The notes: generated by a model not told the origin, from the sequence alone. A stretch of 64,000 nucleotides of DNA from Candidatus Omnitrophota bacterium (GCA_016201795.1 JACQCF010000020.1:5651-69650); one strand, 5' to 3'. Shown: positions 43,061 to 61,562, counted from the first letter of the stretch. A program made the numbers and translations.

Positions 43061-44681
43061 GCGCATGGCATTAACGATACTGGTTGTTGTTGGTTTGATG
43101 ACGCTAGCTATGGCTAATGATTTGCAGTTGAGCCATTTGAATGTGGTCAGTACAAATACAGCCGCGCAAACCATGACCTTCAGTTTTGATTTAACGCAGC
43201 AAAACAGTTGGCGTACCACCACCAATTATGATGCCGTGTGGATTTTTATGAAATATTCCACCAACGCAGGAATAACTTGGCAACATGCCACTATGGCCGC
43301 CAACGGTATCAATCCCACCGGATTTTTAGCGCCGGATCATTTTGAAATCGATGTCCCACCGGATCAAAAAGGATTTTTTTTGCATCGTAGTGATTATGGC
43401 TCTGGAACTATTTCACCTCAAGGGATTCAATTTGTCTGGGATTATCGCCAGGACGGTCTCACCACAGCCACAGCCCAAGCCGCCAACACTCTTCATAAAA
43501 TTTTTGGCATTGAAATGGTCTATATTCCAGCCGGCGCTTTTTATGCGGGGGATGGCAACAGTTCCGCAGATTATCATTTAAAGGCTGGCTCCGCGGATAA
43601 TAATCCCTGGTATATTCAAAGTGAAAATGCCATTACCACCACCAACGCAGTTTCCGGCGGTTATTATTATGTCGCCAGCAGTGCTAATGGCGAGAACAAT
43701 ACGGGTGATATTTTTTTAATTCCCGCTTCTTTCCCCAAAGGTTACCACGATTTTTATTTAATGAAATATGAATTAACACAAGGCCAGTGGGTGGGATTTT
43801 TTAACACTCTCTCCCATGCGGCTAAATTGAATCATGACATTACTTCCGCCGATTTAGGAGGTAAAAATTCTCAAGGGGCGGTTTATCGCAATACCATTGC
43901 TTGGGATTCTTCTAATGTTTCTTCCCCAGCGACGACCTCGAGGCCTTGGCGTCCGGTCAGTTTTGTCTCCTGGCCGGATGTGGCGGCCTATGCGGCGTGG
44001 GCAGCGCTGCGTCCTATAACGGAATTGGAATTCGAGAAAGCCGCTCGCGGTAAAGACATTGCCCCTGTACCGGATGAATTGGCCTGGGGGACTGCTTCTT
44101 ACACGGCGGTGACTTCTTCAGATATCGTTCCTTCCAATAGCGATGAAAATGGAACTGAAACCATTCAAAACAGCGCGGCCAATTTGAGCCGTAATTCATT
44201 GGGATTTACTTCCGGTGATGGCAGGGCCTTGGGGCCTGCTCCTAATCAAAGCGGGCCTTTGCGGGCAGGGATTTTTGCGGCTACTTCTAATAATAGAATC
44301 AACAGTGGAGCCGGATTCTACGGCAATATGGAGCTTTCCGGAAATTTGGCAGAGCCAATGGTTACGATCGGCCGTGTGCAGGGCCGCCAATTTTTGGGTA
44401 CCCATGGCAATGGGCAATTGACGACGCTGGCAGGGTTTGAAGGTTTTGCTCCTAATACGGATTGGCCGGGCATTGATACCGCCAATGCCAGCCGGGGAAT
44501 AAGACAGACCGTGGGCATCGGTTATCGCGGGGGCGATTTCGCCTCTTCTAATATTCGTACTTATGAGCTGTCTTCGCGGACGTATGCGGCTAAAGACCCT
44601 GATAGTCAGGGATGTTTTCAGCGTTATGATGCCAACTGCGCTGTTTTCTATGGTGGTCGCTTGGGCCGAACAGCCCCTTAA
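43047..44681 (+). CDS. Secreted FGE/SUMF1-domain protein, paralog 2
   Basis: Signal peptide (MMAIKRMALTILVVVGLMTLAMA). Motifs YLMKYELTQGQWVGF, RPVSFVSW, RPITELEFEKAARG, YRGGDFAS. Start overlaps paralog 1 stop. Confidence 0.65.
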   Translation: MMAIKRMALTILVVVGLMTLAMANDLQLSHLNVVSTNTAAQTMTFSFDLTQQNSWRTTTNYDAVWIFMKYSTNAGITWQHATMAANGINPTGFLAPDHFEIDVPPDQKGFFLHRSDYGSGTISPQGIQFVWDYRQDGLTTATAQAANTLHKIFGIEMVYIPAGAFYAGDGNSSADYHLKAGSADNNPWYIQSENAITTTNAVSGGYYYVASSANGENNTGDIFLIPASFPKGYHDFYLMKYELTQGQWVGFFNTLSHAAKLNHDITSADLGGKNSQGAVYRNTIAWDSSNVSSPATTSRPWRPVSFVSWPDVAAYAAWAALRPITELEFEKAARGKDIAPVPDELAWGTASYTAVTSSDIVPSNSDENGTETIQNSAANLSRNSLGFTSGDGRALGPAPNQSGPLRAGIFAATSNNRINSGAGFYGNMELSGNLAEPMVTIGRVQGRQFLGTHGNGQLTTLAGFEGFAPNTDWPGIDTANASRGIRQTVGIGYRGGDFASSNIRTYELSSRTYAAKDPDSQGCFQRYDANCAVFYGGRLGRTAP

Positions 44682-44690
44682 TACAACGGC

Positions 44691-47297
44691 ATGTCTAAAC
44701 AGGGTTTAAAATTGAACACACCAAACCATCGGCGGATATTTCTTGTCTTGGGAGCTTTTGGGGTATTTGGTTTTATTGTCTCTCAAGCTCTGGCGCAATA
44801 CAGCGGCGGCAGTCAAACCTTCACCGCTGAGGATACCATCGGCAGTGATATTTACAAAGGCGGCGCGCAAACCACCTCCACGTTTGCCAGCTCTGCTTCC
44901 ATTGGGTCTTTGTCCTATGGGACAGCGACTAAACTTGTCTTTACTACTTCTCCCTCAACCACCAAACACTTCTTGAAGTTTGAACGTCAGCCGGTGGTGG
45001 CTATTGAAGATGTCAATGGTAATGTGGTCGCCGGCGATAACAGCACACAGGTCACTATACAAATCCTCAACAATCCTGGCGATGGGGCTCTCTTGGGTAC
45101 GGCCACCATCACAGCTGCTCATGGTTTGGCGCAGTTTACGGATTTGCAAATTAACCGTCCAGGTCAGATGTATACTTTAAAAGCGACGGCGGCTGGCTTG
45201 ATTGACGGTATTTCTGCTAATTTTGATATTTTATCTGGTACAGGGGCCAAAGCTGTCGCCGTCTGGGACAATGCAAGTAGTGCTTTTAATATTTATACCT
45301 GGGTTGAATCGGACAACCAACGTGTTGCATTAGCTGCGGGTAATACATGTACTATTACAATTTTTAAAGTCAATGGCACTACTGAAACGGCGCCGTCCAT
45401 GAGTCTAGATACCACCCAAAATTGGTTTAAATCTGATACTGAATGGACTCCAGTAACGCCTGCAAATTCTTACTTTATCGACATCTCTATTACCAGCGCT
45501 GCTGCCTGCAGCGCTAATGCCGGTAATATTTGTCAGACGTATCAGCCTTTGGATCTTGTGAAATCCACCGTTGAAGCCATTAAAACAAAAACTGACACCA
45601 TCAACTGGCAGGATATCGGGGTTATTAAAGGCAGCACCAACACCATCAACTGGCAGGATATCGGGGTTTTAAAATCAACCGACAGCGCCATTAAGACTGT
45701 CACCGATACTATACCGACCACCATTAACTGGACTGATATTGACCGTATGACTAAAGCGGCCGTGAATTGGACGGATATTTCCCGCCAGTCTTTAGTAGGT
45801 GTTAACTGGAATGATATGATGGTATTAACCACTATCGGTATTAATTGGAGAGACTTCAATACTCTGACCAAAGCGGGTGTGAATTGGAATGATTTAGGGG
45901 TGTTGACGACCAAAGGTGTTAATTGGACAGATTTTCAGAAATTTGCTAGCCTTGGCATAAACTGGACCGATATGGATAAGCTTTTCAAAGCCGGAGTCAA
46001 CTGGAGTGATTTTGCTTTGATGGGTAAAACTAGTATTAACTGGTATGACGTAGCCATTATGTCCGGTGCCAGAATCAATTGGTCGAGTCAAATTAACTGG
46101 TTTAGCCTGGCGGCCTTGACGACTTCGATGGTGAACTGGAATGATTTGGCGGTTCTGTCCATTAATCACATCAACTGGGATGATTTTGGAGTATTAAGCA
46201 AGACAGGGGTCAACTGGTCAAGCGTGGGGGTTTTATCAACGGCCAATATCAATTGGGCGGATATTCAAACATTATCCAAGGCAGGTGTTAACTGGGGCGG
46301 GATCGCTACTTTAGCCAATAGTGGAGTCAATTGGACTAACATTGCTCAGTTGTCTTTATCCAATGTCAATTGGACCGCCTTCGATGTTCTGGGGGCGGCA
46401 GGCGTTAACTGGACCGATATTGCCTCTCTGAGCCTGAAGGGAATTAACTGGACGGATATCTCGACTTTAAGTACCCGGGGAGTTAATTGGGATAATCTCA
46501 GAACTATCTCTACCAGCGGTGTGAACTGGACGGATTTGAATGCTATGACCACCTCTGGTATTAACTGGTTGAGCTTCGGGTCTTTATCTAACGCCGGGAT
46601 TAACTGGGCTGGTATTGATATCCTTTCTGATGCCAATGTTAATTGGTATGGCGTTGGACAAATGTCGACGAACAATATCAATTGGAGTAATTTTAGCGAA
46701 TTATCCACCGCCAATATCAACTGGGAGGATGTGAATGCGCAAAGCCGTGGGGGAATCAACTGGATTGATTACGCCTCCATGACCCACGGCGGGGTTAACT
46801 GGTTTGATCCCGCACTGCAGAGTACCGCGCATATTAATTGGGCAGGGATAAATACCTTAATGAGCAGGGTGGGCTCTATTAATGATGTCTCGAAAAAGGG
46901 CAAGACCAGCGCGGATGCTGCCTTAGGGTATACTCAGGATATTTTGCGTGATTTAGGGCTCAATGGTGTCACGCCGGATGTCTATACCAAATTGAAACTC
47001 CTGGAAAATTCTATTGAGGACATCAAGACATCAGCCCAAGATTTAACCAGCGGCCAGGGCAATTCAGGCAATATGGCTAAACAGATGATTGATAAACTCA
47101 ACAACATATTGGCCAGACAGGCCAAAGCAGCTGGTTTGCAAGAAACGATGAGTGTATCTCAACTGTCTGCTAAAGAATCCAAAGATACACAGAAGGTTAA
47201 CGAAAAATTGGAAGAAATCACGGCCAAGGTCAATGCCTTGCGTGAGGCGATGCAGGTTCAAGATGTGGTCGTCAAGGCCTGGTATGAAAGTGAATAA
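44691..47297 (+). CDS. Large membrane-anchored/secreted protein with N-terminal Ig-like region, ~37 tandem 13-residue N-W repeats and a C-terminal coiled coil
   Basis: N-terminal signal/anchor (IFLVLGAFGVFGFIVSQALA). Repeat consensus S-x-x-G-[VI]-N-W-x-[DN]-[IFL]-x-x-[LM], about 37 copies. C-terminal coiled coil (KLNNILARQAKAAGL...EEITAKVNALREAMQ). Confidence 0.75.
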   Translation: MSKQGLKLNTPNHRRIFLVLGAFGVFGFIVSQALAQYSGGSQTFTAEDTIGSDIYKGGAQTTSTFASSASIGSLSYGTATKLVFTTSPSTTKHFLKFERQPVVAIEDVNGNVVAGDNSTQVTIQILNNPGDGALLGTATITAAHGLAQFTDLQINRPGQMYTLKATAAGLIDGISANFDILSGTGAKAVAVWDNASSAFNIYTWVESDNQRVALAAGNTCTITIFKVNGTTETAPSMSLDTTQNWFKSDTEWTPVTPANSYFIDISITSAAACSANAGNICQTYQPLDLVKSTVEAIKTKTDTINWQDIGVIKGSTNTINWQDIGVLKSTDSAIKTVTDTIPTTINWTDIDRMTKAAVNWTDISRQSLVGVNWNDMMVLTTIGINWRDFNTLTKAGVNWNDLGVLTTKGVNWTDFQKFASLGINWTDMDKLFKAGVNWSDFALMGKTSINWYDVAIMSGARINWSSQINWFSLAALTTSMVNWNDLAVLSINHINWDDFGVLSKTGVNWSSVGVLSTANINWADIQTLSKAGVNWGGIATLANSGVNWTNIAQLSLSNVNWTAFDVLGAAGVNWTDIASLSLKGINWTDISTLSTRGVNWDNLRTISTSGVNWTDLNAMTTSGINWLSFGSLSNAGINWAGIDILSDANVNWYGVGQMSTNNINWSNFSELSTANINWEDVNAQSRGGINWIDYASMTHGGVNWFDPALQSTAHINWAGINTLMSRVGSINDVSKKGKTSADAALGYTQDILRDLGLNGVTPDVYTKLKLLENSIEDIKTSAQDLTSGQGNSGNMAKQMIDKLNNILARQAKAAGLQETMSVSQLSAKESKDTQKVNEKLEEITAKVNALREAMQVQDVVVKAWYESE
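45590..46860 (+). repeat. In-frame tandem 39-bp (13-codon) repeat array encoding the G[VI]NWxD repeats
   Basis: Degenerate at DNA level but invariant AAYTGG (N-W) core recurs every 39 bp. Includes one perfect 28-bp direct duplicate (CACCATCAACTGGCAGGATATCGGGGTT at 45596 and 45641). Confidence 0.7.
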
Positions 47298-47299
47298 TT

Positions 47300-48607
47300 A
47301 TGAACAAAATGTTTGATCCCCCCAGATGGATGACCGTGATCATGGGGCTTACGTTTCTGTTGGGGACAGCACCTCTAGCTTTGGCGGACGTGTATATTAA
47401 TGTGATGGCTGTTAACGGCATGCCGGAGACCAAAGAGAGTCCCATCAAATTTAATTTACCCGGTGATATAACAGCCCAGGATATTCTTGATACTAATGGT
47501 CTTGATTTAGATTATAACGTGAATGACGCTAATTATTATGTGCATGGCAAGGTCACGCTCAAGCCCAAAGAGTCCAAAATTTTTCGTATCCGTGTCCGCG
47601 ATGTCTGGCGATTAACACCCCAACACGTCAATGATATTAAGAATAAAATCGAGCAAGGCTATGAGCAAATAGGAAAGCTCAAAGATCCTCAAGCAGGAGG
47701 GCTTCTTCGAAACCGGCTTCTTGAGAAACTCGATTTTGTTCAAGCACAAAGCACAAAGGCAGACAGTGTTGAGAAGCGTATGGATGCTTTCCGCGCTTAC
47801 ACAAAAGAATTGCAGCGCATTGAATATAATGCCCTGGCCGTCGATTACTGGCGCTCAGACCCCCATGCCGTTGCACAGGACAAAATAATCCGTTTTAATA
47901 TAGAAATTGAGAATCCATTCGACACCGAAAAACCCTATAAACACAAACATTATTTACCCGCCGAGGTCAAACCCGAGAATCTTGTTGAGTTTGAAGGCTT
48001 TGAAGTTCGTTTTGATCAGGCCAGAGGCCAGGTCTTTTTATTTAAAGAGGAACAGCTTAAAGCTAAAGAAAAAAAGAAATATACGATTGGTGTTAAAGAC
48101 GTGTGGTTGATTCCTTCTAAAGACATTAATGATTTACACAGCCGGGCCAATGACGTTTATGATTTTTTAAAAGATTCCAAGTTCGATTCCAGTGCCAAAA
48201 CTCTTTTCGATCATATGAATGTGCTGTTGGCCGATATTGAAGCTTCACAGGCACAGAAAAGAGGAGTCATGGAGCATATCAGCATTTTCCGTAATAATCA
48301 AAAGACCTACGATAGCGCCAAGGCCGACGTGGAAAATCTGGAGAAATTGTTGTCCATGTACCGTGAGGGCATAGAGAAAACCAGAGTGCAGAATATCCTA
48401 CAGAAGGTGCGTTCTCTTAGAGGGCCAGCGGATATTGCCAAAGCTGTCTTTCATAAAAAACCTACTGAAACTACCACCTGGAAATTAATCAAGTGGATTT
48501 TAGTTTTTGTAGCCTTTTTAACTATCCTGAATTTTGTGGTCTGGATGATACGTTCAAAAGAGAAGAAAACGCCCGGGACTCAATCCCCTGGAGAGAAAAT
48601 AGCATAA
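47300..48607 (+). CDS. Hypothetical secreted protein with C-terminal TM anchor and an internal duplication
   Basis: Signal peptide (VIMGLTFLLGTAPLALA). Internal repeat (FRIRVRDVWRLTPQHVNDIKNKIEQGYEQ vs YTIGVKDVWLIPSKDINDLHSRANDVYDFL). C-terminal TM (WKLIKWILVFVAFLTILNFVVWMI). 2-nt gap from the repeat protein and 12-nt gap to the ATPase alpha gene. Confidence 0.5.
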   Translation: MNKMFDPPRWMTVIMGLTFLLGTAPLALADVYINVMAVNGMPETKESPIKFNLPGDITAQDILDTNGLDLDYNVNDANYYVHGKVTLKPKESKIFRIRVRDVWRLTPQHVNDIKNKIEQGYEQIGKLKDPQAGGLLRNRLLEKLDFVQAQSTKADSVEKRMDAFRAYTKELQRIEYNALAVDYWRSDPHAVAQDKIIRFNIEIENPFDTEKPYKHKHYLPAEVKPENLVEFEGFEVRFDQARGQVFLFKEEQLKAKEKKKYTIGVKDVWLIPSKDINDLHSRANDVYDFLKDSKFDSSAKTLFDHMNVLLADIEASQAQKRGVMEHISIFRNNQKTYDSAKADVENLEKLLSMYREGIEKTRVQNILQKVRSLRGPADIAKAVFHKKPTETTTWKLIKWILVFVAFLTILNFVVWMIRSKEKKTPGTQSPGEKIA

Positions 48608-48619
48608 AGCGGTGAGGCT

Positions 48620-50158
48620 GTGATGGGTGCAAAGCAGTTACAATATACGGAAGCCGGCGTCGTCAAAGCTGTTCGCGGCTGTATCGTTCTTGTGAGAGGT
48701 TTGCACCATTGTATTAATGGACAGCTGATGACCTTCGGTTATGGCACCATGGGCATGGTGATTGGTTTTAATGAACAGGAAGCCCAGGTTCTGATTATTA
48801 AAGAAACCGAGAAAATTAAAGCCGGGGATAAGGCCATTGCCTCCATTGAACCGTTTGAAATGCCGGTCGGGGAAAAATTCATTGGGCGCATTGTGAATGT
48901 CTTGGCAGAGCCCCTGGACGGTTTAGGCCCTATTGCCTATGATCAAATGTATCCCATTTTTTCTGAAGCCCCGCCGATTCTGGCGCGTCAGCCTTTAAAT
49001 AAAACGTTGGAAACAGGCATTAAAGTTTTGGATGTTATGACTCCCATCGGTCTTGGCCAGCGTGAGTTAATCCTGGGGGATAAGGGAACGGGCAAAACAA
49101 CTTTTGTGACGGATACGATTCTCAATCAAAAACATACCGGCCTCATATGCATTTATGTGGCCATCGGTAAACCCAAATCCGCTCTGGCTAAAATCGTGCA
49201 GTTGTTTAAAGACCACGATTGTTTCAAGTACAGTTTGATTATTTGTGCCGGGGCATCGTCTGTGCCCGGCCAACAGTATTTGGCGCCGTATGTCGCCTGT
49301 TCAGTGGCAGAATATTTTTTGCATCAGGGCAAGAATGTTTTTATTGGATTTGATGATTTGACCAAACACGCCTGGTGTTATCGGGAAATTTCGCTGTTGC
49401 TGGGCCGCCCTCCCGGACGCGACTCTTATCCCGGAGATATTTTCTATCTGCATTCGAAGATGATCGAGCGCGCCTGTTATCTGGATGAAAAACACGGGGG
49501 TGGGTCCATGACTTTTTTCCCCATTGTGGAGATCCTCGAAGGTGACCTGACGGCTTTTGTGCCTTCCAACCTGGTTTCCATGACCGATGGACAAATTTAT
49601 TTAAGCAGTTCGCTTTTTGGCGAAGGCCAAAAGCCCGCCTTGGATTTGGGTTTATCTATTTCCCGTGTTGGCTCCAAAGTACAATGGCCGGCGATCAAAT
49701 CTCTTTCCGGCCCTTTACGTTTGGAATATTTGCAGTATAGGGAATTACTACGCATTTCCAAACTCAAAACCACCGGCTATTCTGATGAAACTCTGGAGAA
49801 GCTCAAACGCGGGGCGATTTTGACCGAAATTTTGCGTCAGGATAAGGACAGGCCCGTGATACAGGAGATTCAAGTGATGATTTTTTATGCCTTTACCAGG
49901 AAAATGCTCGATGAATTAACCATTCCCGAAGTCAGGATTTTCCAGGATGAAATCCTTGAGTATACGTGCAAGAATAATCCGGATTTATTAACACTGTTAA
50001 AAGAAAAGCGCAGGCTTGATCCGGATATTGAAAAAGGCATCAGCAGCGTCGTTGGCGCTTATGTGCAAGCATTGATGGGGCAACGTAAGCAGCAATCTTT
50101 GGATCAGCGGGATGATGAGGCGGCCGAGCTTCAGCCGGCGCAGGCCAAAGGGGTCTAA
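48620..50158 (+). CDS. F-type ATPase alpha-subunit homolog (divergent)
   Basis: Alpha-type N-terminal beta-barrel, P-loop GDKGTGKT (canonical GDRQTGKT). Long colinear match to AtpA: CIYVAIGKPKSALAKIV, YLAPYVACSVAEYF, LLLGRPPGRDSYPGDIFYLHSKMIERA. Confidence 0.8.
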   Translation: MMGAKQLQYTEAGVVKAVRGCIVLVRGLHHCINGQLMTFGYGTMGMVIGFNEQEAQVLIIKETEKIKAGDKAIASIEPFEMPVGEKFIGRIVNVLAEPLDGLGPIAYDQMYPIFSEAPPILARQPLNKTLETGIKVLDVMTPIGLGQRELILGDKGTGKTTFVTDTILNQKHTGLICIYVAIGKPKSALAKIVQLFKDHDCFKYSLIICAGASSVPGQQYLAPYVACSVAEYFLHQGKNVFIGFDDLTKHAWCYREISLLLGRPPGRDSYPGDIFYLHSKMIERACYLDEKHGGGSMTFFPIVEILEGDLTAFVPSNLVSMTDGQIYLSSSLFGEGQKPALDLGLSISRVGSKVQWPAIKSLSGPLRLEYLQYRELLRISKLKTTGYSDETLEKLKRGAILTEILRQDKDRPVIQEIQVMIFYAFTRKMLDELTIPEVRIFQDEILEYTCKNNPDLLTLLKEKRRLDPDIEKGISSVVGAYVQALMGQRKQQSLDQRDDEAAELQPAQAKGV

Positions 50159-50163
50159 AATAT

Positions 50164-50466
50164 ATGGCTCAAAACAGAACCAATTTTCGCTGCACCATTC
50201 TCAGTCCCCAAAATTTAATATTTGAAGACGATGTGAACAGTTTGTTTATTATTGGCGATAGAAGCGAATATGAACTGTTAGCGTATCATTATCCTTTGGT
50301 TGGTCTTATTCAAAAAGGAGATATTATCATAGACGCCAAGCGCCGTATTTCGATACGTTCCGGCATCTTACGATTTTTCGCCAATGAATGTACGATCTTA
50401 ATTGAGGACACCGAGCATACGTTTGCCTCTGGCCGGCGTTCTTTGGATGAGGTGATTAAACTTTAA
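50164..50466 (+). CDS. F-type ATPase epsilon-subunit homolog (short, beta-sandwich only)
   Basis: 100 aa. Pattern L.ILSPQ...FE..V..L.I.G..SEYELLAYHYPLVGLI..G.I...  ...RISIRSGILRF...CTILIED matches the AtpC N-terminal domain. Lacks the C-terminal inhibitory helices. Confidence 0.6.
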   Translation: MAQNRTNFRCTILSPQNLIFEDDVNSLFIIGDRSEYELLAYHYPLVGLIQKGDIIIDAKRRISIRSGILRFFANECTILIEDTEHTFASGRRSLDEVIKL

Positions 50467-50485
50467 GTAAAGCGAAGGCTTTGGT

Positions 50486-50704
50486 ATGTTAGCCGACACA
50501 TTTATTATTCTTACGGTCATGTTTATTGCGGTCATGGGGCCATCGGTGGTGGTGGCCATTTTAGGCTATGCGGTCATCAAAGCTTTAAGCCGTAATCCGT
50601 CGGCCGCTTCCAAAATTTTTATGGGCATGGCGATCATGCTGGTGTTTGTCGAGGCCATTGCGGTGGTAGCGATTTTAATCATTTTTCAGATGTTTGGTAA
50701 GTAG
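50486..50704 (+). CDS. F-type ATPase c-subunit (proteolipid)
   Basis: 72-aa helical hairpin with RNP polar loop and conserved TM2 carboxylate (MLVFVEAIAVVAILI). Confidence 0.7.
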   Translation: MLADTFIILTVMFIAVMGPSVVVAILGYAVIKALSRNPSAASKIFMGMAIMLVFVEAIAVVAILIIFQMFGK

Positions 50705-50710
50705 GCGCTT

Positions 50711-50938
50711 ATGGGATTTCGTTTATGGTATGAAGGCATTCTTTTTATGGTGTCGTTCGGGCTGATTGTCGGTTTGCCGTGTTTTTTCGTGGCGGTTTTA
50801 GGATCAAAAATGATCAATGATTTGGGTTATTTTCCGACCAAGGCGGCTAAGATTCAGCTGAATATGTCATGGAAAATTTTTATGGTCGAGGTTGTTGCAT
50901 TTTTGATGCTGATCGTTTTTTTTCATATTTTTAGCTAA
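50711..50938 (+). CDS. Second c-subunit-like hairpin protein (c' paralog or AtpZ/AtpR-like)
   Basis: 75-aa two-TM hairpin with a glutamate in TM2 (IFMVEVVAFLMLIV). Divergent from the upstream c-subunit. Confidence 0.4.
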   Translation: MGFRLWYEGILFMVSFGLIVGLPCFFVAVLGSKMINDLGYFPTKAAKIQLNMSWKIFMVEVVAFLMLIVFFHIFS

Positions 50939-50947
50939 TCAAGGGGC

Positions 50948-51709: not shown

Positions 51710-51721
51710 AGGTATTGTTGT

Positions 51722-54026
<2,305 letters not shown>

Positions 54027-54028
54027 AT

Positions 54029-55732
54029 ATGTATAAGCCAGTTGCCAATAAGATCATCATCGATGTTTTAGTGAAAACCGGCCTTTTAACCAGCCAAGAC
54101 GCCGAACGTTATATCGTTTTAGCCAAAGCCGAACGCCGTAACCTTGATAGTTATTTAATTCGTCACGGTATTCTCACTGACCGTCAAATCGTTGAAGCTC
54201 TTGCCCAACAGTTGAAGCTGGATATTGTTGATTTAAAAGACATCGAGATTCCCTCCAGCGTGATTGAAAGGGTGCCGGTGAAATTTGCTTCCTTTTATGA
54301 ATTTATGCCGATTGCCATCGAAGGCAATCGTTTGAAATTAGCCATCTCCAGCCCTCTGGACGTTCGTGTGGTGGATGATATCCGCGCGCACCTGGGGCTT
54401 GAACCCAGGGAAGTGCTGGCCTTAAAATTTGATATCAATGAGGCCCTCAAAAAATATTATGGTTTGGCTTCAGAAACAATCGATAAAATTCTCACCCAGG
54501 AACCTCAACATAAAGATCACGCCCACACGCAAGCCTGGGTGGAGGATATCGAGAAAAAAAGCGAAGATCCATCGGTGGCCAAACTGGTCAATCAGATTAT
54601 TTTGGAGGCTTATCAGAAGAGAGCCACCGACATTCATCTAGAACCTTACCGCGATAAAGTGCGCCTGCGTTACCGTATCGACGGGGTTTTGATCGACGCC
54701 AATTTGCCGCCGGAGGCCAAACTTTTTCTTTTGCCGATGCTTTCACGCATTAAAATTATGTCGAATTTAAGCATCACCGAAAAACGCCTGCCGCAGGACG
54801 GCAGCGCGGTGGTGCGTACCAAGGATCAGGATTTGGATTTGCGTATTTCCACCATTCCAACCCTACGGGGGGAAAGCATGGTCATTCGTATTCTGCCCAC
54901 TCAAAATATGCGTACGACGTTGGAAAGTTTGGGGCTTAATGAACATAATGCCGCACAACTGCGCGGTTTAATCGCTCAACCTCACGGTATTATTTTTGTG
55001 ACCGGGCCAACCGGAAGCGGCAAGACCACCACCCTTTACGCCTGTCTTAATGAGCTTAACCGCGATGAGCGCAAGATCATCACCATTGAAGACCCCATTG
55101 AATATGAAATGGAAGGAATTACCCAGATTCAAATCAGTCCGCGGCTGAATTTTGGTTTCGCGCAAGGGTTGCGCAGTATCTTGCGTCATGATCCGGACAT
55201 TATCATGGTCGGGGAAGTGCGCGATTTAGAAACAGTACAGATTGCCATCCGCACGGCGCTGACCGGTCATCTGGTGTTTTCCACCCTGCATACCAATGAT
55301 GCCGCCAGCGGTATCACACGCTTGATTGACATGGGGGTTGAACCTTATTTGGTGGCTTCTTCCGTCGAGGCTTTTGCGGCTCAGCGTTTGGTTCGTTTAA
55401 TTTGTCCTCAATGCAAAACACAAGATAGCGGTATCACGCCGCTGGTGCGCCAGGAGATGGCGCAATCTTTGTCTTTGCCCTCGGTGGATTTTAAAATTTA
55501 TAAAGGCCGCGGCTGCGACCATTGCCATGGTACAGGTTTCTGGGGCCGCAGTGCGATTTATGAAATTTTACCTATGAATGAAACGATTCGCGCCATGTTA
55601 AGCCACCAGCCCCGTGTAGCCACTATCAAGAAAGCCGCCATCAGCGGCGGCATGCAAACATTGCGCCAAAACGGCTGGCAGTGCGTCCTGAAGGGTTTGA
55701 CAACACCAGCGGAAGTGATGTATGTGACTTAA
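54029..55732 (+). CDS. gspE: Type II secretion/type IV pilus assembly ATPase (GspE/PilB family)
   Basis: N-terminal GSPII_E_N domains, Walker A VTGPTGSGKTTT, Asp/His boxes, tetracysteine Zn motif CPQC...CDHC. Confidence 0.85.
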   Translation: MYKPVANKIIIDVLVKTGLLTSQDAERYIVLAKAERRNLDSYLIRHGILTDRQIVEALAQQLKLDIVDLKDIEIPSSVIERVPVKFASFYEFMPIAIEGNRLKLAISSPLDVRVVDDIRAHLGLEPREVLALKFDINEALKKYYGLASETIDKILTQEPQHKDHAHTQAWVEDIEKKSEDPSVAKLVNQIILEAYQKRATDIHLEPYRDKVRLRYRIDGVLIDANLPPEAKLFLLPMLSRIKIMSNLSITEKRLPQDGSAVVRTKDQDLDLRISTIPTLRGESMVIRILPTQNMRTTLESLGLNEHNAAQLRGLIAQPHGIIFVTGPTGSGKTTTLYACLNELNRDERKIITIEDPIEYEMEGITQIQISPRLNFGFAQGLRSILRHDPDIIMVGEVRDLETVQIAIRTALTGHLVFSTLHTNDAASGITRLIDMGVEPYLVASSVEAFAAQRLVRLICPQCKTQDSGITPLVRQEMAQSLSLPSVDFKIYKGRGCDHCHGTGFWGRSAIYEILPMNETIRAMLSHQPRVATIKKAAISGGMQTLRQNGWQCVLKGLTTPAEVMYVT

Positions 55733-55736
55733 CACC

Positions 55737-56942
55737 ATGCCTTCTTATTTGTACAAAGCTAAAAAAAATTTTGCTGAGACCGTCACCGGCCGCATGGAGG
55801 CCCAGACCCAGGAAGAAGCTCTGGATTTGATTCATCAGCTGGGGCTGGTGCCGGTATCATTGGAAGAAGTAGCTGGAGGTATTTTAGTCAGAGACATACG
55901 TCCTCGTCGCATTAGCCTCAAAGAAATTTATTATTTTACTAAACAATTGGGAGGCCTTATTAAATCCGGCGTAGCTTTGCTTAAAAGCCTTGAGGTTATT
56001 AGCACCCAGACTAAAAATGTTTATTTGGCCAAAGTCATCAGCGATATCGCCCTGGCGGTCAAAAGCGGCCGTTCGTTTTCTCTGACTTTAAGCGATTATC
56101 CCGAAATTTTTTCTCCTTTATATGTGGCCATGGTTCAGGCGGGGGAAGAAATTGGGCATTTGCGCGGTGTGCTTTTGGATGTAGCTGAATTTCAAAAGAA
56201 ACAGCAGGAATTTTCTTCTAAAGTAACCGGCGCCCTGGTTTATCCGCTACTCATGCTGGCGATAGGTCTTTTAACAGTCTCCTTTATCCTTACCTTTGTT
56301 TTGCCTAAAATCGCCGTCATCTACGCAGATACTTCCCAGAGCCTGCCATGGCCGACTTTGGTGATTACGCAAGTCAGCTATTTTTTTCAAACTTTTTGGA
56401 TTTTTTTGGTGATGGTCGTCGTCATCGCTACGATCATCTTTAACCGCTGGTACCAGAGGCCGTCGGCAAAAATCATCATTGGTCAATGGTTTTTGCATAT
56501 GCCTTTTTTGAGAGAGTTGGTTGTCAAGACGGATTTAGTCCGTTTTACCCGCACGACGCATTTGCTTCTTAACAGCGGTTTGACGTTGGTGCGCTCGATG
56601 GAAGTGGCGCTTCCAACCATCACTAATCCATTGTTAAGAGAAGATTTATCCAACTGCGTGGGCGGTTTAAAATCGGGAGAAAGCTTGGGGAGTTGTCTGA
56701 AGCAGTCTTTACTGGTACCGGATATGATCCGGCAAATGCTCTCTGTAGCGGAAGAAAGTGGATCTTTGCAAGAGTCCTTGGGGGACATTGCCGAAGCTTA
56801 TGAAGCAGAGATCAATGAAACCATCCGTTTGATCACCACTTTGCTGGAGCCGGCTATGATCCTGACGGTGGGGCTGGTGGTGGGGTTTATCGTTTTTGCC
56901 ATGCTGCTGCCGATTTTTTCCATGGATATCCTAGCCCGTTAG
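55737..56942 (+). CDS. gspF: Type II secretion/type IV pilus inner-membrane platform protein (GspF/PilC family)
   Basis: 401 aa, two GspF-type repeats with 3 TM helices. Adjacent to gspE. Confidence 0.8.
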   Translation: MPSYLYKAKKNFAETVTGRMEAQTQEEALDLIHQLGLVPVSLEEVAGGILVRDIRPRRISLKEIYYFTKQLGGLIKSGVALLKSLEVISTQTKNVYLAKVISDIALAVKSGRSFSLTLSDYPEIFSPLYVAMVQAGEEIGHLRGVLLDVAEFQKKQQEFSSKVTGALVYPLLMLAIGLLTVSFILTFVLPKIAVIYADTSQSLPWPTLVITQVSYFFQTFWIFLVMVVVIATIIFNRWYQRPSAKIIIGQWFLHMPFLRELVVKTDLVRFTRTTHLLLNSGLTLVRSMEVALPTITNPLLREDLSNCVGGLKSGESLGSCLKQSLLVPDMIRQMLSVAEESGSLQESLGDIAEAYEAEINETIRLITTLLEPAMILTVGLVVGFIVFAMLLPIFSMDILAR

Positions 56943-57061
56943 TGTTTCGTGACATTTTATGTGGAAAGTCTTTACATGATCGATTTTTTGGTTAAAACTG
57001 ATAGTCAGGATACTTTCAGTGATCCCGTCGGTATTGCGTGGAAGCGTTGAGGTATAATACA

Positions 57062-57472
57062 ATGAAACATAGAGGCGGTTTTACTTTGGTGGAAATTATG
57101 CTGGTGGTGATTATTATCGCGGCTTTATCGGCGATGATTATCCCGCGTTTGGTTGGCCGCGGGGAGCAGGCCAAAGTCAAAATCGCCAAAAGCGATATTG
57201 CAGCCAATATCCCCACGGCTTTAAAGCTTTATGAGTTAGATAACGGTATTTTTCCAACCACCGCCCAGGGTTTAAACGCTTTGCGCGTTAAGCCGACTAA
57301 CAATCCCATCCCTCAAAATTGGAACGGGCCTTATCTGGAAAAAGGTCCTATTGATCCCTGGGGCCGGTCGTATGTTTATGTATCCCCTGGCGAGCACGGC
57401 TTGGATTATGATCTTTCCTCTAAAGGCAAAGATGAAACCTCCGACAAGGACGATGTCGTCAATTGGCAATAA
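57062..57472 (+). CDS. gspG: Major pseudopilin GspG (type IV pilin-like, prepilin leader)
   Basis: MKHRGG|FTLVEIMLVVIIIAALSA class III signal with G-F-T-L-x-E. GspG-type motifs (QAKVKIAKSDI, GPYLEKGPIDPWGRSYVY). GAGG RBS 9 nt upstream. Confidence 0.8.
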   Translation: MKHRGGFTLVEIMLVVIIIAALSAMIIPRLVGRGEQAKVKIAKSDIAANIPTALKLYELDNGIFPTTAQGLNALRVKPTNNPIPQNWNGPYLEKGPIDPWGRSYVYVSPGEHGLDYDLSSKGKDETSDKDDVVNWQ

Positions 57473-57854
57473 AGAAAAAGGGTTTACGTTTGTTGAGGTC
57501 ATGGTCGCGCTGGTGATTCTCTCGGCCGGCATTGTCATGATTTATAAGAGTTTTTTTCTATACGCGGATTACCTGTCTTATTTAACCTGTCGCCTGCACG
57601 CCACCCAAATGATGGAGAGCAAAATTGCTGATATCGAACGTTCTTTTCGCCAAAGTCAGGGATCTTCTTTTGACACAGGAGCCATGACAGAGACGGTTAA
57701 GATCAATCATAAACGGGTTGATTTTAATTACACGATTAATACGACTTCCTTATTGGGCCTGGAGGGTGTTTATCGTATGGATATCACCCTGGCCTGGCAT
57801 GACGGACATCGTTTGATGCAATTGTCCCGTGCGAGTTTATTAACCAAAATATGA
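57453..57854 (+). CDS. Minor pseudopilin (GspH/GspI-like)
   Basis: Prepilin-type N-terminus KEKG|FTFVEVMVALVILSAG. Start taken at internal Met overlapping the gspG 3' end. Confidence 0.6.
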   Translation: MSSIGNKEKGFTFVEVMVALVILSAGIVMIYKSFFLYADYLSYLTCRLHATQMMESKIADIERSFRQSQGSSFDTGAMTETVKINHKRVDFNYTINTTSLLGLEGVYRMDITLAWHDGHRLMQLSRASLLTKI

Positions 57855-58444
57855 AACCTAAACCCAGGGCATTTACTTTAGTGGAAGTATTGTTAGCCGC
57901 TGCTCTGGTGGCGATGGTCGGGATGGCTATTTTCCAGGCCTTTGCCAATGGTTTGAAATTATGGACTAAAGCGCAGCGTTTAAATCGGGAAGCCGAAGTG
58001 GCTATTTTTTTGGATAGAATGGAGCAAGATTTAAGATCAACCCCTCTCATTTCCGGAATCAGTTTTAAAGGTATAGCCACGCAGATTTCTTTTCCGGCAG
58101 TGGTGATGACCAGGGCTGACAGAAAATCTTCGATGGCCTCGGAAGTGTTTATTGATCAAATCGGGGCTGTGCAGTATCGTTTTGATGCCCTTGAGCATAC
58201 GATTTTTCGACGGCAGACCAATTACGCGCAGGCACTCAAAGGTCAATGGGGTCAAGAATTGCCGGTCGTCGGTGGTATTGATGAGTTCAATTTTTATTAT
58301 GAAGTCGCGTCCGATAAAGGATTTTTGATGAAGCCGCAGAGCGATGAAGTGATCCCTTCGGGTGTTATGGTTAAGATGCATTTTAGCGATGACAGCGGGG
58401 AGCATCATCTCAGGCGCTATTTTAGGATACCGGTGGGCGGTTAA
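57851..58444 (+). CDS. Minor pseudopilin (GspJ-like)
   Basis: Prepilin-type N-terminus PRA|FTLVEVLLAAALVAM. Start/stop overlap with flanking genes. Confidence 0.6.
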   Translation: MKPKPRAFTLVEVLLAAALVAMVGMAIFQAFANGLKLWTKAQRLNREAEVAIFLDRMEQDLRSTPLISGISFKGIATQISFPAVVMTRADRKSSMASEVFIDQIGAVQYRFDALEHTIFRRQTNYAQALKGQWGQELPVVGGIDEFNFYYEVASDKGFLMKPQSDEVIPSGVMVKMHFSDDSGEHHLRRYFRIPVGG

Positions 58445-59475
58445 TGGCAACGAAAAATATGCTACTTAAACAGCGTCAGGGATTTGTGCTTATTTTTGCC
58501 CTGTGGGTTTTGGGGTTTTTGACTGTTTTGGCACTAGGGGTTGCCGCCGGTGTTCGCCAGAAAATCGTTTTGCTGCAAAAGCTTGATGAACGAAGCCGCA
58601 TGCACCATGTGCTGGAAGGGGCAGTGAAATATAGCGCGGCCTATCTGATCAATCAATTAAGCACGTCCGGATTTATCTACAACCCTGCTGTTAAAATGCA
58701 TTTGCATAATAACCCCCATCAATTTGGTCAGTTTGATCTAGGGGGGGATACAGCTTCGATCAGTTATACCTTGGCTGATGAAGGGTCTTCTCAAGAGCGG
58801 TTTGGCGTGGTTGATGAAGAACGGAAAATCAATCTTAATACGACCAATACAATCATTTTACAACGATTGATTGAGAGAGTTCTGGTTGTGAAACCTGATG
58901 AGGCCAAAGAATTAGCCCAAGCCATTTTAGATTGGCGTCACTACGGTCAAAGTCAGGTCAAAGGGTTTTTTAGCGATGAATATTATGAGAATTTAGAGTA
59001 TCCTTATGCGAAAAAGGATGCGGATTATGAAACCCTTGATGAGTTATTGCTGGTCAAGGGTATGACCAAAGACAAATATGAAAAGCTGATGGATGATGTG
59101 ACGATTTATGGCCAGGGCAAGGTCAATATCAATACAGCCCCGGCGCAGGTATTATATGCTTTAGGTCTACAGGATGCGCTCATCGATAAGATTCTTGAAG
59201 TCCGTCGGGGGAAAGATCAGAGTGAGGGGACCATGGATGATCATATATTTTTCAAAACTTTTGATGTGGCCAGTGAAGTCAATGCGATCATTAAACTTGA
59301 AGACGGAGAAATTCATGCCATCGATGCGTTAAATATACAAAATCTACTGACCACCAATTCCTATTATTTTTCTGTTTTGTCCCAAGCTCATTTAGCGCAC
59401 CGTCGCTCATCCCAAAAAATACGTGTGGTGATTTCTTCCAGAGAAAACAAGATTGTCTATTGGAGTCAGCGGTGA
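58444..59475 (+). CDS. gspK: Type II secretion minor pseudopilin GspK
   Basis: N-terminal hydrophobic segment QRQGFVLIFALWVLGFL. GspK hallmarks: RKINLNTTN, KVNINTAPAQVLYAL (HhH-like INxNTA). Confidence 0.7.
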   Translation: MATKNMLLKQRQGFVLIFALWVLGFLTVLALGVAAGVRQKIVLLQKLDERSRMHHVLEGAVKYSAAYLINQLSTSGFIYNPAVKMHLHNNPHQFGQFDLGGDTASISYTLADEGSSQERFGVVDEERKINLNTTNTIILQRLIERVLVVKPDEAKELAQAILDWRHYGQSQVKGFFSDEYYENLEYPYAKKDADYETLDELLLVKGMTKDKYEKLMDDVTIYGQGKVNINTAPAQVLYALGLQDALIDKILEVRRGKDQSEGTMDDHIFFKTFDVASEVNAIIKLEDGEIHAIDALNIQNLLTTNSYYFSVLSQAHLAHRRSSQKIRVVISSRENKIVYWSQR

Positions 59476-59564
59476 GTTAAAGGCAGTATCCTTCTATCAA
59501 AATAATTGTTTTTTGCATGGGGTAGAGAATTTTTGGCTATAATAAATTGAACTTAAACTAAGGA

Positions 59565-61007
59565 ATGTGCATGTTCGGCGCCGACCAGCGTATTTTAAGC
59601 TTTTCACTTAATGAAACTATTATCAAACTTGCTCAGGTGAGCTCTGGTGGACTCGTCGAGAAAATAGCCTGGGCTTTAGCGGCAGAGGCCTCGCCGGAGG
59701 TTTTGGGTCAGACTCTCAAAATACTTTTGAATGGGTTTGACCATAAGGCTATGGTCGTTTGTGTGATTCCCGCCAGCGCCGTTACCTCCAAAACTATTGA
59801 AGTGCCTTCTTTGGATCCTCAGGAAATCAAATCGATTCTCAATTTGCAGGTTAACCGCCATACGCCTTATTCGCGCCAAGAGGTTCTGGTGGGTTCCATC
59901 AATTTGGGGTTGGCCTCTGCCCATCAGACCAAGGTGCTTTTGGTCATTGCCCATCGCCATGTCATCAAAGACCGTCTGACGGTTTTAGAAAAGGTATCGC
60001 TTAATCCTGATAAAATTCTTTTTGTTCCCGAAGGTATTGGTCGTTTGTACGCCGGGGGATTGAATTTAAAGAAGGATTCATTGCCGGTGGGAATCATTGA
60101 TGTGGCTTTAACATCGGTTAATTTCATAGTGGTCTGCCGTGGCTCGGTGGTTTTTTGCCGCAGTATTCCTATCGGGATCAAACAGATGATCGAAAGCCAG
60201 GAAGCTGTGCTTAAGCTTTTGGAGGAAATCAATAAATCCATCGCCGCCTCCAGCGGTGAAGACGCTCAAGCCGCGGTAGCCTCTTTTGTTGTCACCAGCG
60301 ATCATGAAGTGGTCAGAAATATGTTACCCCTTTTGCAGGAAAGCCTCAAAGCCGAGGTTCGTTTAAGTCCTTATGTGAACTTGATCCAAGCCGGATCAGT
60401 CAAAAGTAAATTGCAACAAGATTTTGCCGACGACTCTTTCCTGGATGTCATCGCACCGGCGCTCACCCTTGCCAAATGCGAAGTCAATCTTATGCCCGAG
60501 GAAATGGTTCTCAAAAAGACTATCGAGAAACAAAGTCAGGAAGCGACCAAGGCAGGAATCGCAGCGGTACTCATGATGGTTTTGTTAGGTAGCATTATTT
60601 TTGGTAGGATTTATTTTAAAGATATATTTTTGAATAAGAATTTAAGAGAACAATTTGCCGGTCAAGCACAAGAAGTGCAAAAGCTCCAGGAGAGTTTAAA
60701 TAAAACGAAAATTGTGCGGCAGTATCTGCAAAGTCGCATGATCAGTTTGGACATTATCCATGAGCTTTATAGAATCACTCCCGTTCAAATTTATTTAAAT
60801 ACTGTTGCCCTGGAAGAAGACGGAACATTGACGGTCAGCGGCATTTCCGATTCTATGTCGCAGGTGTTTTCTTATGTGAAAGCTTTGTCTGATTCGTCTT
60901 TGTTTAAGAATGTGAAAACGAAATCTACGACGACCAAGAAAGATAACGGTCAGGACGTGGCTGCTTTCGAGCTGAGCTTAAAAGTGGAAGAATCCCTCAA
61001 GGAGTAA
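59565..61007 (+). CDS. GspL-like / PilM-PilN-fusion assembly protein (cytoplasmic actin-like domain, TM, periplasmic domain)
   Basis: 480 aa. N-terminal actin-like fold as in PilM/GspL, one TM near residue 330 (IAAVLMMVLLGSIIF), coiled coil and periplasmic domain. Confidence 0.55.
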   Translation: MCMFGADQRILSFSLNETIIKLAQVSSGGLVEKIAWALAAEASPEVLGQTLKILLNGFDHKAMVVCVIPASAVTSKTIEVPSLDPQEIKSILNLQVNRHTPYSRQEVLVGSINLGLASAHQTKVLLVIAHRHVIKDRLTVLEKVSLNPDKILFVPEGIGRLYAGGLNLKKDSLPVGIIDVALTSVNFIVVCRGSVVFCRSIPIGIKQMIESQEAVLKLLEEINKSIAASSGEDAQAAVASFVVTSDHEVVRNMLPLLQESLKAEVRLSPYVNLIQAGSVKSKLQQDFADDSFLDVIAPALTLAKCEVNLMPEEMVLKKTIEKQSQEATKAGIAAVLMMVLLGSIIFGRIYFKDIFLNKNLREQFAGQAQEVQKLQESLNKTKIVRQYLQSRMISLDIIHELYRITPVQIYLNTVALEEDGTLTVSGISDSMSQVFSYVKALSDSSLFKNVKTKSTTTKKDNGQDVAAFELSLKVEESLKE

Positions 61008-61562
61008 ATGGTGATTATCAAATTTATTTCCGGACTTTCCGATCAGGGCAAGAAACTATTGGTGATTGCTTTGATGATCGTGGTGGCTGCCTTGTTTGAT
61101 CGTCTTTTGATTGATCCTACCATGTCGTGGCTTTCGACCATTGATGAACAAATCCGCAAAGAAGAAGAGGCTATCAAACAGAATGTACATTTTTTAAGTT
61201 ATAAGGACAAAATTTTAAGAGAAAGTCAGGCGGTTGACCCCTATGTGACTCACCATCTGCCCAAGGAAGAGGAGATCATTGCCGCTTTTTTAAAGAAAAT
61301 CGAAATAGTGGCGACTAAAGCCAATGTGACGCTAGTCAAAGTAACGCCTTCCGCAGCTCAACAGGAGCCCTATGATTTAAAATATTCCGCGGATGTAGAA
61401 TGCTCTGGTCAATTGACCGATGTGGTGACCTTCATGCATTTGGTGAATAGCTCCAATGAATTAACGAAGGTCGTTAAGTTTAATCTGGGCTCCCCTAAAG
61501 CAGAGACAGATGAAATTAAAGCCACCATGACCATCTCCAAAATCATTGTCACTCAACGCTGA
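61008..61562 (+). CDS. GspM/PilO-like bitopic assembly protein
   Basis: 184 aa, N-terminal TM (LLVIALMIVVAALF), coiled coil, ferredoxin-like periplasmic domain. Directly follows the GspL-like gene. Confidence 0.5.
   Translation: MVIIKFISGLSDQGKKLLVIALMIVVAALFDRLLIDPTMSWLSTIDEQIRKEEEAIKQNVHFLSYKDKILRESQAVDPYVTHHLPKEEEIIAAFLKKIEIVATKANVTLVKVTPSAAQQEPYDLKYSADVECSGQLTDVVTFMHLVNSSNELTKVVKFNLGSPKAETDEIKATMTISKIIVTQR

Follow-up and report, generated by a model that had tools for sequence, protein, structure and literature searches.

A 64,000-nucleotide (nt) stretch of the genome of a Candidatus Omnitrophota bacterium (GCA_016201795.1, JACQCF010000020.1:5651-69650), here called the window and numbered from its first letter, carries on its plus strand an open reading frame (ORF) at 44691..47297 whose product, of 868 amino acids (aa) plus stop, contains a long array of a 13-residue Asn-Trp repeat. 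The ORF had been singled out in an earlier reading of the DNA (the original prediction), and its limits are confirmed here. The protein is identical to HY209_05345, an NCBI protein from a metagenome-assembled genome (MAG) named Candidatus Omnitrophica bacterium. We classify it as a probable surface fibre of the repeat-stalk type, with a repeat that belongs to no described family, and refer to it as the fibre protein.

The fibre protein contains 33 Asn-Trp (NW) dipeptides, as against 3.4 expected (2,000 composition shuffles, with a shuffle maximum of 10), and all of them except one lie within residues 301-724 (32/33). The array is made up of two 15-residue units, 29 full 13-residue units and one truncated unit. 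The original prediction was therefore right about the periodic 13-residue array and wrong about its 37 copies, a figure which equals the total number of Trp residues in the protein. At the start of the array (residues 297-341, 45579..45713) are the 15-residue units of apparently ancestral type, IKTKTDTINWQDIGV and IKGSTNTINWQDIGV, and a degenerate KTVTDTI segment; the two units read TDTINWQDIGV[IL]K, with the Asn at residues 305 and 320. A proximal sub-array of nine full 13-mers follows (residues 342-458, 45714..46064), then a truncated six-residue unit, GARINW, which we call the stutter (residues 459-464, 46065..46082), and then a distal sub-array of 20 13-mers with a spacing of exactly 13 (residues 465-724, 46083..46862). 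The consensus of the 13-mers in the window is x-x-G-[VI]-N-W-x-D-[ILFV]-x-x-[LM]-[ST], with Asn-Trp invariant in the array, which agrees with the invariant Asn-Trp and the hydrophobic residues at +10/+13 that had been pointed out before.

At the DNA level the 39-bp units are degenerate, with identities of about 60-78% between array units, and Tandem Repeats Finder gave no report within the array when run on the window DNA. This degeneracy indicates that the repeat is selected at the protein level, as had been proposed. The 28-bp duplicate described at the array start was also recovered: two 45-nt segments (45579-45623 and 45624-45668) are 84% identical and share a perfect stretch of about 28-29 nt.

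The array is flanked by other domains, all encoded on the plus strand. Residues 1-35 (44691..44795) are predicted from the sequence to be a probable Sec signal peptide, with a basic n-region, the hydrophobic stretch IFLVLGAFGVFGFIV and the site SQALA/QY. The n/h/c layout, together with an A-x-A-like site ahead of [YF]-x-G-G-S that is kept in homologues, looks like that of a cleavable signal peptide and not of an anchor, so the N-terminal anchor of the original prediction is not upheld. A Gly/Ser/Thr-rich linker with a conserved YxGGSxxG motif comes next (residues 36-78, 44796..44924) and is modelled with low confidence by AlphaFold. It leads into an Ig-like beta-sandwich domain (residues 79-181, 44925..45233), with an AlphaFold predicted local distance difference test score (pLDDT) of about 80-89, and a second, all-beta sandwich domain (residues 185-290, 45243..45560; pLDDT about 75-89). 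With Foldseek, the first domain matched BbgIII, the Sap S-layer protein and titin Ig domains, and residues 78-290 (pLDDT 75-89) matched tandem Ig-like domains (7nit, 8s80 and titin) with a probability of 0.99-1.0; tandem Ig-like domains were the only Foldseek matches to the fibre protein model. All Pfam sequence scores of the Ig-like region were under threshold in the window protein, and distant sequence relatives of the region of the first domain carry PF18565 or Invasin_D3. Judged from the models, the N-terminal part belongs to the bacterial Ig-like (Big/invasin-type) surface domains. Behind the array, a helical C-terminal domain (residues 725-868, 46863..47294) ends in VVVKAWYESE (47265-47294); AlphaFold places its helices within residues 741-867 (pLDDT 55-79), and the family as a whole keeps both this domain and the VVVK[TA]W[FY]E motif at its end. 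The Ig-like N-terminal part and the helical C-terminus of the architecture proposed earlier are thus in agreement with AlphaFold and Foldseek. In P0003, P0061, P0064, P0074 and other homologous proteins, one to four copies of a DTS..xTLFGKI motif lie between the array and the C-terminal helical domain; the fibre protein of the window is without this motif.

The 13-residue unit and described repeat families

The repeat of the window protein had no above-threshold match in Pfam or NCBIfam and no match covering it in PHROGs. A profile of three units gave chance-level matches only among PDB sequences, and a full-text literature search for the motif strings found no paper. These sequence comparisons support the view, already put forward in the original prediction, that the Asn-Trp 13-mer belongs to no described family.

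Several weak matches and candidate classes were considered and rejected. DUF7476 (E = 0.023; 15 bits against a cutoff of 27) and NPV_P10, both found weakly on the window protein, were judged to be artefacts of periodicity or composition. Ntox33 reached 43 bits in total on P0003, where no single stretch passed and profile positions 5-33 were matched repeatedly, so that this match was also regarded as an artefact; Ntox33 had no match on the window protein. The N-terminal repeats of lysostaphin have the period of 13 in common with the Asn-Trp repeat, and the corresponding family of 13-residue repeats, Lysostaphin_N (PF25533), scored 27 bits on P0002 and 22 bits on P0011 against a cutoff of 60, with no match for the window protein; most likely these scores reflect the shared periodicity only. 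Pentapeptide, hexapeptide LbH and RTX nonapeptide repeats do not fit, since the period is strictly 13 and no such Pfam family appeared even at E <= 10. A trimeric autotransporter adhesin was rejected because Pfam and NCBIfam gave no match to a YadA barrel, Hep_Hag or HIM and the C-terminus is helical, ending in VVVKAWYESE.

The unit pattern G-[IV]-N-W-x-D-[LIF]-x-x-[LM] has what we take to be a resemblance to the second half of a dockerin Ca2+ loop and its following helix ([VI]-N-x-x-D-[LF]-x-x-L). However, Dockerin_1 scored nothing on the window protein even at E <= 10. Of the dockerin loop, the unit conserves no more than the equivalents of positions 9 (N) and 12 (D), whereas the equivalents of ligands 1, 3 and 5 are not conserved acids, unit position 12 is L/M, and a full EF-hand would not fit into so short a unit. 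Dockerin and EF-hand repeats were rejected as well.

A three-unit in-register profile was searched against 1.84 billion representative proteins and returned 382 proteins at E <= 1e-3, among them 145 at E <= 1e-10; these were mostly short fragments, along with two proteins of 2,809 and 2,304 aa. A 52-aa profile and a repeat-only query also brought back mainly short fragments and missed the giant proteins described below, and the filter of the search appears to be biased to short sequences. Short runs of about ten canonical 13-residue G[IV]NWxD units occur in the Glug-domain proteins P0035, P0088 and P0091. Considering that these proteins are otherwise unrelated, the repeat acts as a mobile module beyond the fibre family. 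Looser G[IV]NW repeats of 14-16 residues were found in P0118, P0139 and P0192.

Relatives, array length and neighbouring genes

The first protein search yielded about a dozen homologues of the same architecture, many of them annotated as 'partial' or lying on short contigs, and every one whose source was named came from Omnitrophota; the remaining matches covered the N-terminal Ig-like region only. A scan of one genome per GTDB species, with a six-sequence alignment as the query, gave 57 loci, of which about 38 are full orthologues, either labelled Omnitrophota or automatically labelled otherwise (for example 'uncultured Planctomycetales') on contigs with the same locus. Loci L003, L005, L006 and L010 and other third-party annotation MAG contigs bear the labels 'uncultured Planctomycetales' or 'Candidatus Saccharibacteria'. 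The whole Omnitrophota-type locus is present on them, its proteins being 60-80% identical to those of the window, and these automatic labels are probably wrong.

Nearly all orthologue ORFs, with 100-300 units each, extend as far as the stored locus or contig goes, and the ORF lengths and NW counts given next are minima: at least 4,153 aa with 294 NW motifs in L005, at least 4,037 aa with 279 in L008, at least 5,290 aa with 304 in L022 (on the complete 3.36-Mb chromosome OY759724.1), at least 3,505 aa with 240 in L029 and at least 2,760 aa with 212 in L040. L002 has a 582-aa homologue (P0018) and, directly after it, a called ORF of 16,204 aa, which has 255 NW motifs in its first 3,334 residues, nearly all 13 apart. 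The two ORFs are split by a 1-nt frameshift in a GGGG run within a repeat unit (L002, about 11730-11750); as this is the only interruption between them, the gene would encode about 16,800 aa. An assembly error, a pseudogene or phase variation may lie behind the frameshift. A metagenome scan with the single window protein found one relative only, L062, in which AtpA is 84% and the protein encoded downstream of the fibre gene 63% identical to those of the window; the locus breaks off within its array, of which at least 227 perfectly spaced units are present, and the C-terminus (...VVVKTWYESE) is nearly the same. The complete short versions are the window protein, with 31 units, and P0003, with 42 units in 1,292 aa. 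The length polymorphism between MAGs that had been anticipated for the array is thus extreme, and the window copy is a dwarf member of a family made up mostly of giant proteins. The repeat is the reason why short-read assemblies break at these loci.

The expansion has a preferred place. A six-residue stutter, MSGxxVNWxxxINW, is conserved across orthologues, and most of those having it carry 9-11 units ahead of it (range 3-16). The big expansions, of hundreds to more than 1,000 units, sit after the stutter, where the window has 20 units. In the arrays of L002 and L022, unit identity peaks at lags of 6 and 12 (0.68-0.74, against about 0.5-0.6), which indicates that in some of the giant orthologues six units together form a super-repeat of 78 residues. 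No such super-repeat is present in the window array.

The gene that starts 2 nt after the fibre stop codon (47300..48607, plus strand) encodes a protein of 435 aa with a predicted signal peptide (...LALA/DVYINV), a C-terminal membrane helix and a basic tail. We propose it as the membrane anchor of the fibre. Its ectodomain is internally duplicated, residues 31-177 and 196-351 each matching a single domain copy in the fused homologues described below. The protein has no match in Pfam, NCBIfam or PDB, and the modules of the fused proteins have none in Pfam, PHROG, NCBIfam or PDB. An anchor-like gene comes after the fibre C-terminus in L001, L060 and L062; in L061, which is indel-rich, two shorter ORFs of 300 and 231 aa lie at this position.

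The link between the two proteins comes from homologues in which the fibre C-terminal domain and the anchor are encoded in one ORF. These are L042 (labelled Planctomycetia), L045, L046, L049 and L050 (MAGs labelled Gammaproteobacteria) and, from the candidate phyla radiation (CPR), L051 (Falkowbacteria), L052 (Curtissbacteria) and L055 (Saccharibacteria). The order in the fused ORFs is an array of 15-16-residue IKTKTDTI[ND]WxDVT units, the helical domain that corresponds to fibre residues of about 725-868, an anchor-like domain and a membrane helix. The blastp alignments are colinear, with E values from 1e-16 down to 4e-4 for the fibre and from 1e-10 to 7e-19 for the anchor. In the ORF of L042, residues 2265-2852 correspond to residues 297-867 of the fibre and residues 2855-3067 to residues 31-425 of the anchor, after which comes the membrane helix. 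With the fibre ending at 2852 and the anchor starting at 2855, the split in Omnitrophota falls exactly between the strand-like segments VVVKAWYE and DVYINVMAV. The gene fusion indicates that the two proteins of the window form one assembly in which the fibre C-terminus is nearest to the membrane, and it accounts for anchoring better than the N-terminus does. The product of 47300-48607 is therefore, on this comparative sequence evidence, probably the membrane anchor of the fibre.

The fused proteins belong to a wider group of KTDTI[ND]W proteins from CPR and other MAGs, which are also undescribed. Units of 15-16 residues, [AT]KTDT[IL]NW, form long arrays in these non-Omnitrophota homologues, and the window array opens with two such units. 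The two groups differ in that the KTDTI[ND]W proteins keep their 15-16-residue units within a longer super-repeat (...EIGTGNIAAIKTKTDTI...) and are single polypeptides with the anchor fused, often ending in SH3b or dockerin domains, whereas among the compared loci 13-spaced runs are confined to those of the Omnitrophota type. The more widespread 15-16-mer, which still opens the window array, appears to be the source of the 13-mer, and from its sequence the window protein can be placed in a KTDTI[ND]W-repeat fibre and anchor module, an undescribed family which we define here. In L041, L043, L044, L053, L057 and L058, labelled as CPR or 'Bdellovibrionales', the KTDTI[ND]W arrays end in dockerin-like EF-hand tails (DINKDGKVNAVDFSILLYNWGK) and not in an anchor domain; dockerin tails such as KVNAVDFSILLYNWGK occur in L057 and similar loci.

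Upstream of the fibre gene, on the same strand, lie a GspC/PilP-like gene (38445-39023), a secretin gene (39020-40666), a gene for a PilW/Tgl-like TPR protein (40686-41447) and two paralogues of the FGE-sulfatase fold (FGE1 and FGE2; 41486-43060 and 43023-44681) with partial PF03781 matches and no specific NCBIfam match. The order GT2, GspC-like, secretin, TPR, (FGE1, FGE2), fibre is found in 34 of the 37 fibre-carrying loci among L003-L040; the three others are L010 and L015, which are short contigs, and L028, which had no upstream match. FGE1 and FGE2 stand between the TPR and fibre genes in about 30 of the 38 Omnitrophota loci L003-L040. The FGE-fold lipoproteins PorK/GldK reportedly form structural rings in type IX secretion, and by analogy the FGE-fold proteins of this locus are possibly structural rather than enzymatic.

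Between the fibre and anchor genes and gspE/gspF is an F-type ATPase operon (48620-54026) with genes for the alpha and epsilon subunits, a b/delta fusion, and the gamma and beta subunits. This nesting is kept in L001, L060, L061 and L062, that is, in every relative in which the region was captured. A small c-like ATPase gene was called in L001, L060 and L061 (the window was not scanned for one), and no a-subunit gene was recognised in the operon, with no search made elsewhere. The rest of a set of genes resembling those of type II secretion systems (T2SS) and type IV pili (T4P) follows at 54029..61562 (plus strand): GspE/PilB, GspF/PilC, at least two pseudopilins, a GspK-like protein, a PilM-PilN fusion and PilO. 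The GspE/PilB ATPase (54029-55732) has an N-terminal MshEN domain, which binds cyclic di-GMP, and its orthologues in L001 and L060 also carry a fused PilZ; these domains suggest that the machinery is under cyclic di-GMP control. A promoter and terminator scan of the fibre operon gave nothing interpretable.

Predicted conformation of the unit

Two AlphaFold predictions were made of the array. With the full fibre protein and 13 aligned sequences (AlphaFold2), residues 294-745 were modelled at a pLDDT of 30-49, with one helix of 8-9 residues per unit and a 4-residue linker. The second run, on an alignment of 36 non-overlapping in-register windows of eight units, again gave one short helix per unit, at a pLDDT of 47. 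No beta-strand was predicted in any unit in either run.

The covariation of residues points in the same direction. From 36 arrays, 3,423 units were picked by the 13-residue NW spacing, and their consensus is K-[AT]-G-[IV]-N-W-x-D-[LIF]-x-V-[LM]-[ST]. N5 and W6 are 100% conserved, as is built in by that selection, and G3 and D8 are conserved at 86% and 83%, respectively. Mean-field direct-coupling analysis of 3,420 three-unit windows (effective number 1,877) gave as the strongest non-trivial couplings p8-p11 (separation 3), p10-p1' (4), p11-p1' (3) and p8-p2' (7), a prime denoting the next unit; p11-p2' (4), p9-p13 (4) and p7-p10 (3) were also strong. Couplings at i+3, i+4 and i+7, and not at i+2, are what would be seen with a helix that starts near position 7 and continues into the following unit. 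The p8-p11 pair is particularly informative: in the L022 array, p11 is D or E in 79 of the 86 units that lack D8, as against only 4 of the 208 units that have it. Because the acidic residue is swapped between the two positions within single arrays, this coupling is not an artefact of lineage. Following textbook capping rules, N5...D8 would presumably be the N-cap box of the helix, with D8 at N3, I/V4 and L/I/F9 its hydrophobic staple and G3 its C-cap.

Taking the models and couplings together, there is moderate support for each unit being a short helix rather than a beta-solenoid coil, and we consider the helix several times the more probable of the two. The beta-solenoid with a Trp ladder suggested in the original prediction is accordingly disfavoured, both by the helices of the two low-confidence AlphaFold runs and by the coupling pattern with its p8/p11 swap, and for the same reasons we rejected the class of short-period beta-solenoids as a home for the repeat. 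The earlier reading of the protein as a fibre was reasonable; what the AlphaFold run then returned was short helices of low confidence and no solenoid. Such an unconfident or non-solenoid model does not remove the novelty of the repeat and shows only that no known fold was recognised.

The proposed fibre, rival explanations and known systems

We lean, with modest confidence, towards the view that the gene encodes the secreted shaft-and-tip subunit of a length-variable, two-protein fibre of the cell surface. The signal peptide would be removed after Sec export, the two Ig-like domains would form the distal tip, and the shaft would consist of two 15-residue units and 29.5 13-residue Asn-Trp units. 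Each unit would most likely be one short alpha-helix that runs from W6 to about A2 of the next unit, with N5 and D8 as its cap and G3 as its end. The C-terminal domain, which ends in the beta-strand-like VVVKAWYE, would dock on the anchor ectodomain, perhaps by strand pairing, and the anchor would be held in the cytoplasmic membrane by its C-terminal helix. The fibre would probably reach or cross the outer membrane via the adjacent secretin, with the GspC-like and the TPR pilotin-like proteins alongside. The number of units after the conserved stutter would set its length, and its purpose may be contact with, or adhesion to, other cells.

A number of points weigh against this proposal. The models of the array are of low confidence (pLDDT 30-57), so that no tertiary arrangement can be claimed from them. 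Contacts need not be the cause of every coupling: some, such as p10-p1', may stem from subtypes of the unit or from lineages. Position 10 is G, N or D in 61% of the 3,423 units and position 11 is mostly Val; G, N, D and Val are poor helix formers, and a non-helical or mixed conformation is conceivable. Furthermore, in a diderm an alpha-helix in the inner membrane as anchor does not explain how the fibre comes to the surface. Passage through the secretin is a conjecture from synteny alone, and adhesion is suggested by the architecture and by the host-dependent lifestyle reported for the phylum.

A bolder form of the proposal, which we regard as rather doubtful, is that the 13-mer represents a new fold class in which capped mini-helices pack into a rod, giving single-gene filaments from tens of nanometres to the micrometre scale that are tethered to the inner membrane via a separate anchor and threaded through a dedicated secretin. 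If true, this would be a new way for diderms to display giant fibres, and one by which ultra-small Omnitrophota could reach host or prey cells.

Four other explanations were weighed against the anchored fibre with helical units, two of which concern the structure of the array. That the array is a tight beta-solenoid or beta-roll with a Trp ladder, maybe oligomeric, with the C-terminal helices forming a coiled-coil stalk, seems unlikely. Tight coils of 12-15 residues are known from TmAFP, LpAFP and the YadA head, the YadA type being a 14-residue left-handed beta-roll. The strict period, the invariant Asn, which could form an Asn ladder, the frequent and turn-like G, N and D at positions 3, 7/8 and 10, the common beta-branched residues I/V4 and V11 and the same-position couplings between adjacent units at p3 and p7 would all suit such a coil, and a low confidence of the AlphaFold monomer would be expected if the fold needed oligomerisation. 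On the other hand, a solenoid is hard to reconcile with units that contain no strand in either run and with dominant couplings that are neither at i+2 nor purely at i+13. The 4-5 large hydrophobic residues per 13, including Trp, would probably be difficult to fit inside a coil, and no match to YadA, Hep_Hag or an autotransporter anchor was found. The array may alternatively have no stable tertiary structure and serve as an entropic spacer or bristle in which nascent helices are flexibly strung together. The pLDDT below 50 over the whole array in both runs, including that with the 36-window in-register alignment, and the extreme tolerance of copy number would be in line with this idea, yet we find it more improbable than the solenoid, because the strong position-specific conservation (N5 and W6 invariant, G3 and D8 above 80%, three conserved aliphatic positions) and the compensatory changes within arrays are typical of packed structures and not of disordered linkers.

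The other two explanations accept the repeat and differ in the role of the protein. With its signal-peptide-like N-terminus the fibre protein is a putative T2SS substrate, and T2SS substrates are normally released; it might therefore be an untethered matrix, coat or S-layer-like protein, with the downstream gene encoding a chaperone or an unrelated membrane protein. The position of the fibre gene inside a T2SS-like locus is compatible with release, as is the fact that the Omnitrophota fibre and the downstream protein are separate and each have their own signal peptide. Nevertheless, the colinear fusions, in which a membrane helix follows the fused domain, argue for tethering, and the two strand-like segments immediately on either side of the split are direct neighbours in the fusions, so that we hold release to be about as unlikely as the solenoid. 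It is highly improbable, finally, that the protein belongs to the structure of the pilus or secretion machine itself, for instance as a periplasmic ruler or alignment protein. The slot between the secretin/TPR genes and gspE/F is tightly conserved, as it might be for a machine part, but a range from 868 to about 16,800 aa among related organisms is hard to square with a fixed component, the Ig-like tip domains resemble those of surface proteins, and fused homologues occur in CPR MAGs, where they are known from the fused ORFs alone.

The anchored fibre has counterparts among the repeat-stalk adhesins. The RTX adhesins LapA, SiiE and MpIBP and the trimeric autotransporters have a tip, a tandem-repeat extender and a cell-proximal anchor, and the number of repeats sets their reach; adhesins of the LapA type are tethered in an outer-membrane channel, the TolC-like LapE. 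In contrast to their extenders, built from Ig-like domains of about 100 residues, the window protein has a 13-residue unit. It also has neither an RTX type I secretion signal nor an autotransporter barrel, the associated channel is a secretin, and the anchor is a separate bitopic membrane protein.

Giant proteins have been reported from Omnitrophota before. According to two published studies, the giant genes adjoin T2SS-like loci with gspD, gspE, gspF and pilin-like genes, and the published classes are 'Archaeovorin' (with HEAT, TPR and enzyme domains), dockerin/TSP3 and multi-enzyme proteins (West-Roberts et al. 2023, 10.1101/2023.11.21.568195; 2026 preprint, 10.64898/2026.06.07.730766). The 13-residue Asn-Trp repeat is not described in the parts of this published work that were consulted (10.1101/2023.11.21.568195; 10.64898/2026.06.07.730766). 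The published giants share with the window family the phylum, the type of neighbourhood and the proposed role in cell contact, and the window gene has the same T2SS/T4P-like location with gspD, gspE and gspF. The orthologues of the window protein are very long too, reaching 4,000-5,000 aa or more in several genomes and, in L002, about 16,800 aa. However, neither the window protein (868 aa) nor the longest orthologue seen (about 16,800 aa) comes up to the 30,000 aa or more by which giants of the Archaeovorin/dockerin type were recognised here, and Pfam found no HEAT, TPR, dockerin or TSP3 content in the window protein. The loci also differ: those published, as described there, have rcpC, PPIase and downstream pilZ and transporter genes, whereas the window locus has the FGE-fold genes, the anchor gene and the F-type ATPase operon.

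The giant proteins of Omnitrophota are largely unannotated 'dark matter', and the Asn-Trp repeat accounts for one whole class of them. It is a strict 13-residue repeat, apparently helical and with an invariant Asn-Trp, that matches no described family and whose array AlphaFold2 does not fold. The window provides a complete version of 868 aa, with both ends intact, which is small enough to express and solve. The fusion ties the fibre to the membrane protein of the next gene and synteny ties both to the secretin, which makes a testable model of the assembly.

Elsewhere in the window, an ORF at 9808-14283 encodes an unusually long multi-domain metabolic protein of 1,491 aa, in which a class I fructose-bisphosphate aldolase domain and a weak stretch resembling a GlpX-type fructose-bisphosphatase are accompanied by long unannotated regions.

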